Assembly (NCBI GenBank): GCA_946496575.1
Contig: CAMMHE010000003.1
Span: forward strand, 5,465-69,464
DNA from: an uncultured Clostridium sp.
GTDB lineage: Bacteria; Bacillota; Clostridia; TANB77; CAG-508
Reading direction: 5' to 3'
Length of the DNA: 64,000 nt
Shown here: positions 2,008 to 43,671 of the stretch, one piece after another
How positions within the stretch are numbered: the first letter of the stretch is position 1
How the letters are laid out: every line of letters begins with the position of its first letter
Program-made: the position numbers and the translations under genes
Notes under the pieces: generated by a model
Databases searched by the model: none
What the model saw: only the letters and a program-made list of their open reading frames with translations
Told to the model about the DNA's origin: nothing

Positions 2008-2072
2008 TTAGTCTTTAATTTCTTTTGCTAATTTTCCTATTGCTTTGGTTTCAATTCTAGATACATAAGAAC
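2008..2072 (-). CDS. sigK: sigK 3' segment (encodes ...SYVSRIETKAIGKLAKEIKD*), separated from the 5' segment by the insertion
   Basis: Own translation of the minus strand gives CSYVSRIETKAIGKLAKEIKD*. This continues the sigma-70 region 4.2 helix that is broken at 6822. Confidence 0.85.
2061..2072. repeat. att core copy ATACATAAGAAC (left junction of sigK element)
   Basis: 11/12 identical to 6824..6835 (ATACATAGGAAC). Both lie within the SYV codons of sigK. Confidence 0.8.
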
Positions 2073-2102
2073 ATCATTATGATCAACAAATTTAAAAATT
2101 TA

Positions 2103-3092
2103 TTATCTGAAAACTGCTTCTAATCCACAATTTTGGCTTTTGTCAGAAAAAATTATATCATTTTTTCTTTTTAATGTAACATTTATTGTTGCAGAAATAC
2201 TTTCAAAAATATCTTTTTCCATTTTTCCCTTAACTGGTGCTGAAAGTTTAAGACCTTTATCAAAATTAGAATTTAAGTTTAAATATAAATCACCTTTTTT
2301 TAGGGTTATATTCATAAATTCATTATTAATGTCATATTCCAATAAATTCACATTATTATAGGTTGTAAATCTAAATTCTATATCATCAACAATAAGTACA
2401 CAAATAATACCTCTAAAATTAAGTAATTTAAATGGTATATCAGCTATTGAAAACATAAAACTTGCATTCTGATTACTAAAATTATTGCCTTGACACCATA
2501 TATACGATTTTGGAAAAGAAACACCCCAATCTTTTTCTATATATCCGGAATTGTCAATAAAATTTATTTTTTTATTATTAATGTTTATCTCACCATTTGT
2601 TTTATTTGACATGCTAAGTATAGCATGATTACATTCCATAAATGGAATATATGAAAAAGGCCCCATAATATTAGGAGCAAAAGCATTTGTAGTAATGTTT
2701 TTAAGATTAGAATATTGAATGTCTCCAAAAATATTTAACTTTTGTGAATCATCATTTATGTCTATATGGATTCTACTTTTTGAAAAAAAATTATTTTTGA
2801 TTTTAATGTAAAATGGTGTAAAGTTAAATTTAAAGTCCCCTATATTATAATTCACAAAGTATGAAGAATCATTTGTAATTATTTGTATAAATGCTTTTTG
2901 CTCTTTATTGTTTATATTTATTCCTGGTATAAACGAAATACCTTTTTCATTATTAGTATTTTTAAAATACCAACCTTCAAAATAGTTTTTACCTGAATTT
3001 AAATAATTTTCCCCTTGAAATAAATCAGGATTTTTTATTAAGAAATATTTATTCATATATATATTTTTTGCTATAAATGCAATTTTATTCAA
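2103..3092 (-). CDS. tocopherol-cyclase-like family protein (cargo)
   Basis: N-terminal ...NYFEGWYFKNTN... resembles the FEGWYFK signature of the tocopherol cyclase family. Otherwise unassigned. Confidence 0.4.
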   Translation of the reverse strand: MNKIAFIAKNIYMNKYFLIKNPDLFQGENYLNSGKNYFEGWYFKNTNNEKGISFIPGININNKEQKAFIQIITNDSSYFVNYNIGDFKFNFTPFYIKIKNNFFSKSRIHIDINDDSQKLNIFGDIQYSNLKNITTNAFAPNIMGPFSYIPFMECNHAILSMSNKTNGEININNKKINFIDNSGYIEKDWGVSFPKSYIWCQGNNFSNQNASFMFSIADIPFKLLNFRGIICVLIVDDIEFRFTTYNNVNLLEYDINNEFMNITLKKGDLYLNLNSNFDKGLKLSAPVKGKMEKDIFESISATINVTLKRKNDIIFSDKSQNCGLEAVFR

Positions 3093-3106
3093 ATGATTTC
3101 GTCAAA

Positions 3107-4075
3107 TTATTTATTTTTTTCTTTATTTCTTTTATCTTGAATTATTTCCATTTCTTTTTCAGTAATTAATGTTACATTGTTCTCTTTTGCCCATGCTACG
3201 CAACCTTTTAATACTGTATTTAAAAATACTCTAGGGACTTTTATTAATTTACTACATGCTTCATCTGTAAATTTGATATTTGGATCTATTCTTGATGCTG
3301 CGTATTTTACAGTATCTAAACTTATCCCCTTACTTTCTGGTATTGGTTCTGCAATAGGCCTTTTAAACCTAGTATACCAAAAATTTTTATTATCTCTATA
3401 TCCATAATCAACTGGTACCCTTGGAAAACTTCTACTATTTACTCCATTAATAATACAATCATAATATTTACTTTTTATTAATATATGATCTATTTTTAAT
3501 ATAAAATGTGCTCCATTTTTGCTAGTTATTCCATTAAATTGATGATAAGGTGGCATATATTCTTCTTGTACTATATCATTTTGTGCATTGTCTAACTCTT
3601 TTACCCATGTACATTCAAATACTTGGAAAGCTTCTTGTATTATTTTAGGATATTTTTCATCAGGGTTTTCTCTTGCTCTTTTTCCATCTACTAAATTAAA
3701 TATGCAATCTTTCATTTTTTCTTCAGTTGTTTCTCCTGGATATCCAAGTCTTACTGCCTCTTTAAAGTATCTTCTACTATCTGTAATAAAATTTATGCTA
3801 CATTTTCCTGTTCTTAATATATTTTTAGCTGTATTAGAACTATTTCTACAACATAATAACATTGCATAATAATCTTTTCCAGCAATATAATATGGAAAAC
3901 ACAGAGAATAAGAACCTATATTGGTTTGTCCACTTTCACTTAATGTTGCTATTTCTGTTGTAGGCATTGGGAAAAAACTAGATGTTTGATAGAAATTATC
4001 TACAATTCTTAAATCTTTAAAACCATTTAATTCCTCAATTTCTTTATTTTTTTCTATCATTTGTATTCCTTTCAT
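3107..4075 (-). CDS. hypothetical protein, possibly flavin-reductase-like split-barrel N-domain (cargo)
   Basis: Weak motif resemblance only (FFPMPTTEIATLSESGQTNIGSYS...NTAKNILRTGKCSINFI). Confidence 0.3.
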   Translation of the reverse strand: MKGIQMIEKNKEIEELNGFKDLRIVDNFYQTSSFFPMPTTEIATLSESGQTNIGSYSLCFPYYIAGKDYYAMLLCCRNSSNTAKNILRTGKCSINFITDSRRYFKEAVRLGYPGETTEEKMKDCIFNLVDGKRARENPDEKYPKIIQEAFQVFECTWVKELDNAQNDIVQEEYMPPYHQFNGITSKNGAHFILKIDHILIKSKYYDCIINGVNSRSFPRVPVDYGYRDNKNFWYTRFKRPIAEPIPESKGISLDTVKYAASRIDPNIKFTDEACSKLIKVPRVFLNTVLKGCVAWAKENNVTLITEKEMEIIQDKRNKEKNK

Positions 4076-41655: not shown

Positions 41656-42777
41656 TACATATCATCTCCAATCATTTCCTTTAAATATTTATTTGTAAAT
41701 CTATTTAACTTATCTATATTTTTCTCTAATTGTTTAATTAAATTATTTGCTTCAGTATATGCCATATCGTAATCTGTCTGATTAACTTCTAATCTTTCAT
41801 ATGCTTTTTTTAATTCATCTTCATCAAGTAATATTATTTTTCCTGTAGGCATTACAACAACATCAAGGTATAAATCATCTTCATAGGGTATGCCATTTTC
41901 TTTATCAATCTTCCTTGCTATATCAAAATACCATTCAATAACTTCATTTTTATCATTATACATGGCTGTTAATCTATATTTCTTATTATAGTCATAAAAT
42001 TCAATCCATTTATAATTATCATTTGCCATACATAAATTGGTACTTTCAATCATGTATGGTTTATACATTTTATTAAAGTTAATTAAAGCAATATCTCCCT
42101 TAAAGTCAGAATTATTAAAACTTTTTATTTTTAAATTTCCATTTTGCACAATTTCCATATTATTAGGATTGGTAACAAATCTTTTCTTTAAACTAATCCA
42201 ATATCTCTGTGTAAGTTCATTTTCTACATATATTTCATTTTCAAGAATACCACCATTATTTTGAATAGATTTAGCAGATCCAATATTCGTTTTATCACAA
42301 TCCATTAACACTCTATCTATTCCCAATTCTTTACACTTTTCTAATGCCAATCTTATTTGTTCTGTGGCTATACCGTTTTCTTCTTTCAGATGGTCTTACA
42401 CTATCTCCTATATGACCTCCATAATTTAATAATTTTTCATTCAAAAAATGTCTTATTTGTAAATTTCCAACTATTTTTCTATCTGATTTCCTTATAGTTA
42501 AATATAAAGTTGCTGGAATTCTATCTTTATCTATTGTATCAATATATAAAGCATTTTTTACTTTTTCTAACCATTTATCAAAATCCTTAATTCTATCAAG
42601 TTCACCATCTCCAGCAATTTCGTTTTCTCCATTGTCTAAAAATTCTTGTAAATATTCTTCAACTTGTTTTTTATATTCTTTTGATGGGAATACTAATTCT
42701 AACTCTCCTTTTTTTACTTTTCTAAAATTATTTCCAATCTTTTTTGATGTATCAATTATATCATTCATTCCTATCAC
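41655..42777 (-). pseudogene. GNAT (COG3981-like) fused to DUF402-like domain, frameshifted near 42376..42379
   Basis: 42331..42777 ends ...GGHIGDSVRPSERRKRYSHR...*. Shifting one nt at an A4 run gives ERRK-GIATEQIRLALEKCKELGIDRVLMDCDKTNIGSAKSIQNNGG..., which is ORF 41655..42350. The C-terminal part, NYKWIEFYDY...WYFDIA...YEDDLYLDVVV, fits the DUF402 pattern. Confidence 0.6.
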
Positions 42778-43339
42778 TCCTTTTACTTTTTTATAAAAAA
42801 ATAAAAGCCGTACAAAAAAATCTTTTAAGACTCCTTTGCAAGACTTTATATATCTTATTTTATAAGTGTAAGTAGTTATCTATATTTTATACTACCCTTT
42901 ACAGCTCAAGCTATATGCTCTATGTAAACTCTTAAATATGTTTTATATTTTAGCATATCTACTAAATTTTGTCAAATTCGATAAATTTGAAATTTCAGTA
43001 ATTAACCCTTATATGTTACTTGAAAATTTATGAACTGTTCATTTACAAAAGGCAGGAAAGAGATACAGAGTGTATCTCACAAACACATAGAAAGACAATC
43101 TTTCTAGTCCTCTGCTTTTATCAAAAATATGCAGAGAAAATACAGAGTTCCCACTTTGGTATATTGTTAATTTTTAATTAAATTTCATTTTTTCTAGCTT
43201 TATTTATAACACTTTTATAAAAACAGCTGATAAAATTGCTAATTTCTTTATTTATATTTCCATATCAAATTTGCAGTTAGGTATTTTTTCTTTATCTTAA
43301 ATATTTATAAGTCCAGGGGATTTTTTGTTGCCTAAACAA

Positions 43340-43351
43340 TTGTCTCCATCT
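43340..43351. repeat. att core copy TTGTCTCCATCT (right junction of yabG element)
   Basis: Identical to 36027..36038. Confidence 0.85.
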
Positions 43352-43671
43352 AAATGTAAAATTGTACCTGTTTTTACTTGTATATTTGTTCTTTTAGCTG
43401 TTTCAATGTAATTTTCTTTACAATTTGTATTTTTGCATGCTTCTATAAGTCTTAAGTCAAATTTTTTAATTATATCCAAAGCTGTTTTTTTATCCACTAT
43501 ACATAAATCCTCGAGTGGTGAATCTGCCTTAATTCTATAAGTAGTCCCCTTCAATATTGCATTTTCAGTACCATTACTAAGTTTTATTACTTTTTCTACA
43601 TTAAATAATACATCTTTTCCATAAGATTTTCTTGTTACATAATCTCCTTTTTTAATTCTTTGTGATTTCAT
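43340..43671 (-). CDS. yabG: sporulation-specific protease YabG, 5' segment
   Basis: MKSQRIKKGDYVTRKSYGKDVLFNVEKVI...TGTILHLDGD is colinear with the B. subtilis YabG N-terminus (IGDMVARKSYQMDVLF...GKVLHLDGDE). The track ORF then reads 13 codons into the element. Start set at MKSQ, which has RBS aaagga. Confidence 0.85.

Follow-up and report, generated by a model that had tools for sequence, protein, structure and literature searches.

Three non-phage large serine recombinase elements within sporulation genes of an uncultured gut Clostridium, probably excised in the mother cell

Three sporulation genes split by recombinase elements

The DNA analyzed here is a stretch of 64,000 nucleotides (hereafter the window) from contig CAMMHE010000003.1 of assembly GCA_946496575.1, an uncultured gut Clostridium of low G+C content (about 25% in the window). 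Three genes of this window, the sigma factor gene sigK, an M14 peptidase gene (hereafter M14) and yabG, are each split by an element that is devoid of phage structural genes and encodes a large serine recombinase (LSR). We consider it probable that the three elements are excised in the mother cell when the organism sporulates.

The sequences show that each element entered a highly conserved coding motif by attP x attB recombination, and that no uninterrupted gene can be expressed as long as the element is integrated. The resident LSR would recombine attL with attR, so that the element leaves as a circle and the exact open reading frame (ORF) is restored. Excision would occur in the terminally differentiated mother cell, and the spore would keep the elements. 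The analogy is with skin, SPbeta, vfbin, gin and yin, in which the mother-cell gene is restored and the spore inherits the interrupted genome (PMC4191935, PMC5595907, PMC5025042, PMC10747680).

The reading frame of sigK breaks after GISRSYV at position 6824 and, by direct translation, picks up at 2060 with SRIETKAIGKLAKEIKD and a stop codon. The break falls at codon 216 of 233, in region 4.2 (GISRSYV/SRIE), and leaves the split gene without the recognition helix of the region 4.2 helix-turn-helix. The direct repeats have 12 bp and one mismatch, GTTCCTATGTAT in the attL core and GTTCTTATGTAT in the attR core (jointly GTTC[C/T]TATGTAT), at a spacing of 4,763 bp. Rejoined SigK has 233 aa and scores 307.9 bits against TIGR02846, above the cut-off of 298.65. 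About 90 bp separate the end of the LSR gene from the 5'-half junction, and the gene points away from sigK. The junctions predicted after in-silico excision are ...TTTCACGTTCCTATGTATCTAGAATTG... for attB and ...AATGATGTTCTTATGTATAGCAACATT... for attP.

In the second gene, likeness to M14 peptidases ends after ANIRGVD at 12898 and returns at 27010 with LNLQF (ANIRGVD/LNLQF), and the 12-bp repeat AGGTGTGGATTT is found in both att cores at a spacing of 14,111 bp. The HxxE zinc motif lies on one half, and the third histidine ligand and catalytic glutamate lie on the other. The rejoined protein of 379 aa comprises PG_binding_1 and positions 5-283 of the 286 of PF00246; the nearest match of its N-terminal domain is the peptidoglycan-binding domain of SleB, and relatives are named 'g-D-glutamyl-meso-diaminopimelate peptidase' by JGI. 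The target is a gamma-D-glutamyl-diaminopimelate peptidase of the M14 family, similar to YqgT/ENP1 and with a peptidoglycan-binding domain of SleB type. Its predicted junctions are ...ATTAGAGGTGTGGATTTAAATTTACAA... (attB) and ...CTCACAGGTGTGGATTTTAAAAACTACC... (attP).

The third gene, yabG, breaks after LHLDGD at 43340 and continues at 36026 with KNY (LHLDGD/KNY), between copies of the 12-bp repeat AGATGGAGACAA in the two att cores, spaced 7,313 bp apart. Rejoined YabG has 280 aa and covers positions 1-274 of the 280 of PF05582; since only the rejoined protein matches this profile end to end, neither half holds the whole domain. In-silico excision would give ...CATTTAGATGGAGACAAAAATTATAGT... 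as attB and ...CAGCAGATGGAGACAATTGTTTAGGC... as attP.

The initial annotation of this DNA had described three genes broken within conserved motifs, with halves on the same strand 4.76, 14.1 and 7.3 kb apart, a 12-bp direct repeat at each pair of breakpoints, at least one LSR per insert and in-frame joining in silico. All of this holds, with the exact spacings, the mismatch in the sigK pair, the LSR domains found in Pfam and the full-length profile matches of the rejoined ORFs (233, 379 and 280 aa) as given here. Together the three inserts take up 26,187 bp of the window (41%), in agreement with the 26 kb first estimated; that this DNA is subject to programmed excision is our proposal by analogy. 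The statement that each insert is its own recombinase element was true of all three, with two amendments: the yabG insert contains tandem LSR genes, one of them frameshifted, and a cargo module shared with other elements; and about 9 kb of the M14 insert is cargo with homologues beside intact M14 genes elsewhere.

Recombinases, attachment sites and small ORFs

Each insert has an intact LSR of 513-537 aa with Resolvase, Recombinase and Zn_ribbon_recom domains in Pfam. A YIRLS motif is located at the N-terminus of all the LSRs, and the four LSR genes share pairwise identities of 33-41%. Among solved structures, that of TnpX (2mhc, E = 1.7e-25) is closest to the catalytic domain. Pfam scans of the insert ORFs showed no phage structural, packaging or lysis genes among the 22 larger ORFs (at least 72 aa) of the three inserts, no Mob/relaxase domain, and no replication or transfer genes. 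Since no phage structural gene occurs among these ORFs, the elements resemble the non-phage element gin and not prophages.

The reconstructed attP sites contain dyads centered in the repeat, with 15/22, 15/22 and 14/22 matches for sigK, M14 and yabG, respectively (P ~0.02-0.05 against shuffles), the yabG dyad (14/22) being the weakest; the attB sites have no dyad symmetry in the same test. An ORF of 34-47 aa just upstream of the LSR gene is present in all three window elements, in the M14 element family described below and in related phage contigs, and matches 42 cluster representatives among 1.8 billion proteins. This small ORF is the sole conserved candidate for an accessory or directionality factor.

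A family of elements at one site of the M14 peptidase gene

A scan of metagenomes with the LSR of the M14 insert as query returned about 33 loci with an LSR 73-81% identical, plus one at 51% (L224). In 22 of the 22 loci that reach both flanks, an M14 half lies on each side of the LSR, and the codon of the cut is shared: the 5' half runs to the counterpart of residue 229 and the 3' half starts from that of residue 228. The 5' half lies about 70 bp past the LSR stop codon, on the opposite strand, in 23 of 28 loci, and 0.2-2.3 kb of cargo is found between them in the other 5. The 3' half is 3.4-8.5 kb away, which gives the range of element sizes in the family. Host M14 proteins share only 37-80% amino acid identity with the halves of the window, so the family spans many species in which one site is kept.

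The consensus attP of the family, GTTGGAAGTTTTTAAAGTCCACA-GG-TGTGGATTTAAAAAACTTCCAAC, is a near-perfect dyad of 48 bp (23+2+23 bp) with GG at its center, with a P arm GTTGGAAGTTTTT...CCACA and a P' arm TGTGGATTT...AAAAACTTCCAAC. The attL of the window has the canonical P' arm (TAAAAACTACCAAC), directly abutting the stop codon of the SDR gene, and the whole 14.1 kb is thus bounded by a genuine attL and attR of the family. Half-ORFs are open in 23 of 27 family loci and decayed in L197, L198, L211 and L224; in L211, the LSR and both M14 halves are broken.

The start of the LSR (MYIRLS) is overlapped by an out-of-frame ORF of 18 codons with a strong ribosome-binding site. A frameshift at the N-terminus of this LSR was considered and rejected as a defect: because the arrangement is conserved in 14 of 15 inspected members, it is a feature and no lesion. 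L211 has ATA instead of the LSR ATG, and L224 carries an in-frame extension. The arrangement may serve to couple translation or to control the recombinase level by frameshifting.

Recurrence at one site was also observed for sigK. A sigma-gene fragment ending at residue 216 adjoins related LSRs in L095/L096 (IMG/VR) and in about nine metagenome loci; the L095/L096 LSR is 47% identical to that of the sigK insert and its core, CGTTCCTATGTAT, is identical. This region 4.2 site differs from the sites described in PMC3442830.

The sigma-factor gene of L095/L096 (IMG/VR UViG 2843100240_000002, 7588-9742) apparently has two interruptions, the first at the region 4.2 site (ISRSYV/), adjoining the relative of the sigK-insert LSR, and the second near the equivalent of residue 112, where the gene of a different LSR (609 aa) overlaps the 5' end.

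Intact relatives, persistence and selection

Intact, syntenic copies of all three genes are present in related metagenome genomes, and one scaffold of 577 kb (L090 and L173) has all of them. In blastn alignments, the relatives with intact genes (L005, L090, L092, L173, L174) match both halves, and the half-alignments overlap at the repeats by 12 bp for sigK and yabG (L005, L090, L173) and by 15-24 bp for M14; overlaps of 10-11 bp were also seen in L090 (sigK) and L174 (yabG). The rejoined proteins are colinear with single uninterrupted orthologues along 100% of their length, with best identities of 91% (SigK), 82% (M14) and 78% (YabG) and no indel at the M14 or yabG junction. Together with the conserved att sites and the cross-species family, these orthologues strongly support the architecture of intervening elements recognized in the initial annotation. 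A search of the window for second copies of the target genes found the halves only.

The window apparently derives from a metagenome-assembled genome and the supporting contigs have about 4-7x coverage, so that an artefact of assembly or binning, with chimeric joins, has to be considered. The same junctions are present, identically, in assemblies made independently in different studies (ERZ2641604, ERZ2916239 and several Logan runs), and the att sites are conserved at the same codon in about 22-33 further contigs, by which this explanation is effectively refuted.

Different studies have yielded the 216-aa SigK fragment beside the LSR in at least 6 samples and at least 8 contigs, and the same numbers apply to the 119-aa YabG fragment beside the DUF4143 ATPase gene. 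This species is represented in ERZ2641604, ERZ2916239, ERR4303137, SRR31007810, ERR15966064/6336/6360/6012, SRR34436965 and ERR4968557. Split sigK and yabG are the sole state seen for this species in at least 6 samples. A collection of 5.8 billion proteins has no intact alleles above 91% (SigK), 82% (M14) and 78% (YabG) identity. Ratios of nonsynonymous to synonymous substitution (dN/dS) between rejoined genes and intact orthologues are 0.05-0.22, in the same range as between intact orthologues and as for unsplit neighbor genes. Persistence and dN/dS argue against long-dead genes, without dating the insertions.

These data bear on the reading of the inserts as ordinary LSR mobile elements that have landed in conserved motifs and are tolerated as knock-outs. 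Excision, if any, would then serve transfer and be unconnected with development, the lineage may sporulate poorly or not at all, and sporulation genes would have been struck since they are conserved and dispensable in gut growth. This LSR family is indeed abundant in phage and prophage contigs, its nearest solved relative is a transposon recombinase (TnpX), and the cargo (Dcm with a decayed restriction enzyme, a DNase, GNAT) is typical of mobile elements. The decayed halves of the four M14 family members, the pseudogene state of one LSR of the yabG insert and the sigma-A-like appearance of the promoter of the M14-family LSR operon point in the same direction. Against it, sigK is indispensable to sporulation where this has been studied, and yet at least 6 samples of this species show no allele other than the split one; M14 halves that stay open across species at 37-80% identity are unexpected for dead genes; dN/dS is not relaxed; all three targets have a promoter motif of mother-cell type; and every characterized case of such an architecture excises during sporulation (PMC4191935, PMC5595907, PMC5025042, PMC10747680). 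On balance, we regard simple mobile elements as a rather unlikely explanation.

Promoters and mother-cell expression

Both sigK and yabG are mother-cell genes, and AC-N16-17-CATAnnnT is the B. subtilis sigma-K consensus. This motif, fixed before looking, was scanned in the window; it cannot tell sigma-E from sigma-K. It occurred 16 times on both strands (128 kb), against 25 +/- 6 in shuffles, and 3 of the 16 copies lie 30-110 nt upstream of the start codons of sigK, M14 and yabG; the other copies are apparently inside or antisense to ORFs, judged by coordinates. In B. subtilis, yabG is sigma-K-dependent (PMC10747680) and yqgT is listed in the sigma-E regulon (PMC3416734). The SleB-type domain, the promoter motif and this regulon listing are indirect indications of a sporulation role for the M14 peptidase.

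The promoter of the operon of the small ORF and LSR is conserved in the M14 family as TTGACA-N17-TGTCATAxT in an alignment of 16 loci (about 23760-23860 of the window, minus strand), and a perfect palindrome in its spacer, ACACTT-N5-AAGTGT, is a candidate repressor operator.

A repressor-type operator would also suit reversible switches at the population level ('active lysogeny' or bet-hedging), with excision and re-integration in dividing cells producing subpopulations able or unable to finish late sporulation, as would TnpX-like enzymes, which we take to catalyze both directions. In the yin system, integrated and excised forms were found together at all time points, and the timing of sporulation was changed (PMC10747680). 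In the assemblies and protein collections queried, however, there is no empty-site allele of this species, and since the elements have no replication or transfer genes, their excised circles would probably not persist in dividing cells. Such switches are, in our estimation, improbable.

Objections to excision in the mother cell

Several observations weigh against developmental excision. No excised attB or attP junctions of this species were found in any collection queried. The promoter of the M14-family LSR operon looks sigma-A-like and repressor-controlled rather than sigma-E/K-dependent, and no sigma-E/K promoter is evident before the LSRs or small ORFs of the sigK and M14 elements, where matches are weak and non-conserved; the exception is the yabG insert, where a motif of sigma-E type lies 52 nt upstream of recombinase A, the frameshifted one. 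TnpX, the closest solved relative of the LSRs, presumably excises without a recombination directionality factor (RDF), and excision therefore need not be tied to development. The small ORF belongs to no Pfam family; its identification as TnpW was dropped, as a single weak Pfam match (E = 0.029) was obtained and 0 of 43 relatives matched.

Further objections concern yabG. YabG scores 259.4 bits against TIGR02855, just below the NCBIfam equivalog cut-off of 270.4. All assemblies contain the frameshift of LSR A, with identical sequence around it in L088 and L089, which were assembled independently. Neither LSR of the yabG insert adjoins an att site. IMG/VR scans returned no relatives of the yabG-element LSRs (the other collections were scanned with the M14 LSR), and support for the yabG element consequently comes from one species.

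In C. difficile, the recombinase is also sigma-A-driven and the RDF alone is mother-cell-specific; hence a sigma-A-like LSR promoter neither excludes nor supports a developmental model. With these points taken into account, excision of the three elements in the mother cell is still the explanation that we consider probable.

Comparison with known systems

Genes known to be restored by excision in the mother cell are sigK, spoVFB, spoVR, spsM, gerE, kamA and, since 2023, yabG. Intervening elements of sporulation genes excised by serine recombinases are therefore a kind already known. Neither yabG nor the M14 peptidase gene was known as a rearranged gene in the initial annotation; this does not hold for yabG, which is restored by excision of yin (PMC10747680, 2023), but it stands for M14, since no report of an interrupted M14/yqgT-type peptidase was found in the open-access literature searched. 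What is added here is the M14 peptidase as a target, with related elements at the identical site in about 33 gut and animal metagenome loci, and the density of three elements in 42 kb. Interruption of sigK is classical; in this case the element is non-phage and very small, and its region 4.2 site is used by related recombinases in contigs from IMG/VR and metagenomes.

The skin elements (B. subtilis skin with SpoIVCA, C. difficile skinCd with CD1231 and CD1234, that of C. tetani and C. perfringens phiS63) are alike in that an LSR element splits sigK between short direct repeats, with in-frame reconstitution. As in B. subtilis, C. tetani and phiS63, the LSR gene is at the 5'-half junction and faces away from sigK (PMC3442830); as in B. 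subtilis, SigK keeps its pro-sequence. The element described here differs in its size of 4.8 kb, in the lack of phage genes and in the position of attB at codon 216 of 233, whereas phiS63 uses nt 427 of about 700, skinCd and skinCt a similar site and skinBs a site elsewhere (PMC3442830). Unlike in C. difficile, no RDF of 72 aa resembling CD1234 is recognizable, and a 36-aa ORF overlaps the LSR start instead.

For yin of C. botulinum V73, restoration of yabG on excision during sporulation was shown experimentally by Douillard et al. in 2023 (PMC10747680). The target, the LSR and the terminal direct repeats (14 bp in yin, 12 bp here) are alike. Yin is, however, a putatively functional prophage of Caudoviricetes type with one LSR beside the 5' half (PMC10747680), whereas the element in this uncultured gut Clostridium is a 7.3-kb non-phage unit with tandem LSR genes in its middle, one of them frameshifted; the att sequences of yin appear in the publication as images only. 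As of November 2023, the authors of yin reported no other yabG insertion in public databases (PMC10747680), and the interruption described here is thus a second, independent and structurally different case.

The gin element of gerE in B. cereus ATCC 10987 (Abe et al. 2017, PMC5595907) is also non-viral; it has at least two serine recombinase genes, and an operon of two such genes is among them. Its active recombinase requires a small accessory protein, GirX, and the cargo includes a restriction-modification system (PMC5595907). The target genes differ, and gin has 28.6 kb as against 4.8-14 kb here.

Tn4451 and Tn4453 encode TnpX and, as in the window, have a small ORF before the recombinase gene, and the TnpX catalytic domain is the closest one solved. 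Transposons of the Tn4451 type have low target specificity, with GA ends, and a mobilization gene (TnpZ/oriT). In contrast, one conserved attB is used per family here (about 22-33 loci), and no mobilization gene was found.

Two of the three recombinases of the Anabaena heterocyst elements are of the tyrosine type. These elements, in nifD, fdxN and hupL, are alike in that several genes of one terminal programme each have their own recombinase element, in another phylum and another developmental programme (PMC6957869). With skin and SPbeta in B. subtilis, they are precedents for several elements in one genome (PMC6957869).

Gene content of the elements and backbone of the window

The features of the three loci are listed in Table 1. 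The yabG-insert genes are all on the yabG strand, in the order 148-aa ORF, DUF402 ORF, GNAT, 34-aa ORF, LSR A, LSR B and DUF4143 ATPase. The module of the first three is repeated in the same order in four M14 elements (L192, L193, L210, L216), upstream of the small ORF and LSR at about 5500-7160; there the 148-aa and DUF402 ORFs have amino acid identities of 77-78%, and GNAT has 62-63%. This recurrence indicates exchange of modules between elements with different targets.

The M14 insert consists of an apparent mobile module of about 5 kb and about 9 kb of cargo, which fills the slot between the LSR and attL; other cargo occupies this slot in L201, L202, L205 and L211. Homologues of several cargo genes (within 12920-21808) lie beside intact M14 genes elsewhere: TspO directly beside M14 in L005, L008 and L024 (75-78% amino acid identity), SDR in L024 (82%) and the CotF-like gene in L028 (86% nucleotide identity). 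A homologue of the GNAT of the yabG insert (41092-41655) has the same position in L012 (69%). The simplest reading of this mirrored cargo would be modular exchange among elements and with the chromosome around M14. No third att copy or M14 remnant was found within the 14-kb insert, where the repeat search gave AT-rich noise only, and no extra M14 3'-half fragments were found near intact M14 in other species.

TspO homologues (41-47% amino acid identity) are also located immediately upstream of more distant LSR genes in L244-L246, and TspO may be a recurrent cargo or neighbor of LSR elements. A frameshift divides the CotF-like spore-coat gene (21256-21808, minus strand) into an ORF of 72 aa and another frame with about 110 codons, called as a 58-aa ORF in L087; the same two ORF calls are present in the independent assemblies L086 and L087. 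Downstream of Dcm, short ORFs at 25397-25743 (minus strand), for which the L086 gene call includes a 29-aa R-HinP1I fragment, have the appearance of a restriction enzyme in decay next to an orphan methylase.

At 23464-23475 (minus strand), the core AGATGGAGACAA of yabG occurs exactly for a third time, in the codons EDGDK of the M14-element LSR and in direct orientation with the yabG att sites. As an att site it was rejected, being probably a chance match: relatives have GGC or GGT at the Gly codon, with L206 as the exception, and L205 and L224 are also altered at the Asp codon.

Table 1. Positions of the split genes, their intervening elements and the promoter motifs in the window
Feature	Position	Strand	Remarks
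sigK 3' segment	2008..2072	-	last 17 codons and stop; attR core 2061-2072
sigK-intervening element, non-phage	2073..6823	.	Pfam; absent from syntenic L005, L090, L092
Tocopherol-cyclase-like ORF in sigK element	2103-3092	-	Pfam
DUF447-like ORF in sigK element	3107-4075	-	Pfam
C39-like peptidase in sigK element	4220-4978	+	Pfam
Small conserved ORF, 36 aa, overlapping LSR start	5046..5156	+	candidate accessory/directionality factor
sigK-element LSR, 527 aa, intact	5149..6732	+	Pfam
sigK 5' segment	6824..7472	-	216 codons, pro-sequence present; ends GISRSYV; attL core 6824-6835
Sigma-K/E-type promoter motif upstream of sigK	7503..7528	-	AC-N16-CATATAAT
Sigma-K/E-type promoter motif upstream of M14	12168..12193	+	motif scan
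M14 5' segment	12210..12898	+	PG_binding_1 and HxxE zinc motif; attL core 12887-12898
M14-insert cargo block	12899..21808	-	SDR, Mac acetyltransferase, cadherin-like, Big_2/dockerin, sortase, cohesin-like, GNAT, TspO, frameshifted CotF-like; Pfam
M14-element LSR, 537 aa	21885..23498	-	starts MYIRLS; Pfam
Out-of-frame upstream ORF of M14-element LSR	23479-23535	-	
Small conserved ORF, 47 aa, upstream of M14-element LSR	23611..23754	-	
Rest of M14 element	23755..26997	.	includes decayed HinP1I-like remnant
290-aa ORF in M14 element	23971-24843	+	
SMEK-domain ORF in M14 element	24978-25304	-	
Dcm (C-5 cytosine) methyltransferase in M14 element	25736-26737	-	
M14 3' segment	26998..27460	+	third zinc ligand His and catalytic Glu motifs; attR core 26998-27009
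yabG 3' segment	35516..36038	-	attR core 36027-36038
yabG-intervening element, non-phage	36039..43339	-	Pfam; absent from L173, L174
AAA_14/DUF4143 ATPase in yabG element	36064-37365	-	Pfam
Recombinase (LSR) B of yabG element, intact, 513 aa	37514..39055	-	Pfam; overlaps end of LSR A
Recombinase (LSR) A of yabG element, broken	39048..40620	-	one frameshift in A-run, giving 81-aa and 430-aa ORFs
Small conserved ORF, 34 aa, upstream of recombinase A	40709..40813	-	
GNAT in yabG element	41092-41655	-	Pfam
DUF402 ORF in yabG element	41655-42350	-	Pfam
148-aa ORF in yabG element	42331-42777	-	
yabG 5' segment	43340..43671	-	attL core 43340-43351
Sigma-K/E-type promoter motif upstream of yabG	43752..43777	-	motif scan

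The backbone order common to the window and its syntenic relatives is RNase HII, sigK, O-antigen ligase, three glycosyltransferases, M14, a variable region, clpX, clpP, tig, L28, ylbJ, veg, yabG, a membrane protein and a RelA-like gene. With the inserts taken out, sigK, M14 and yabG lie within about 26 kb, and the closeness of the three target genes is native. Rfam and tRNA scans of the window gave no match. An apparent split of pgk at the window edge was discarded as an artefact of the ORF listing, since its frame is open to the window end. A 290-aa ORF at 62115-62987 (minus strand), putatively IspH/LytB-like by its motifs, is situated between pgk and tpiA and overlaps the tpiA start; a position inside a glycolytic gene cluster is unusual for such a gene.

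Implications

More broadly, and more tentatively, uncultured gut Clostridia may possess families of minimal non-phage units (small ORF, LSR and att sites, 3.4-14 kb) that act as quasi-domesticated developmental switches, one family always in M14 and another always in region 4.2 of sigK. Here three of them would gate successive levels, a sigma factor and then two of its likely targets, and the small ORF would represent directionality factors of a new type. If true, the three-element rearrangement of heterocysts would have a bacterial parallel here.

The 48-bp attP and attB pairs, which are well defined, and the compact LSRs are potential parts for genome engineering. The three elements within 42 kb make this species a compact natural system for asking if DNA rearrangement gates late sporulation genes combinatorially, and by what excision is triggered in the absence of any known RDF. 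If the proposed excision is true, sigma-K activity would require excision in addition to processing of the pro-sequence, and yabG and the peptidase gene, with their sigma-K/E-type motifs, would each require an excision of their own as well.

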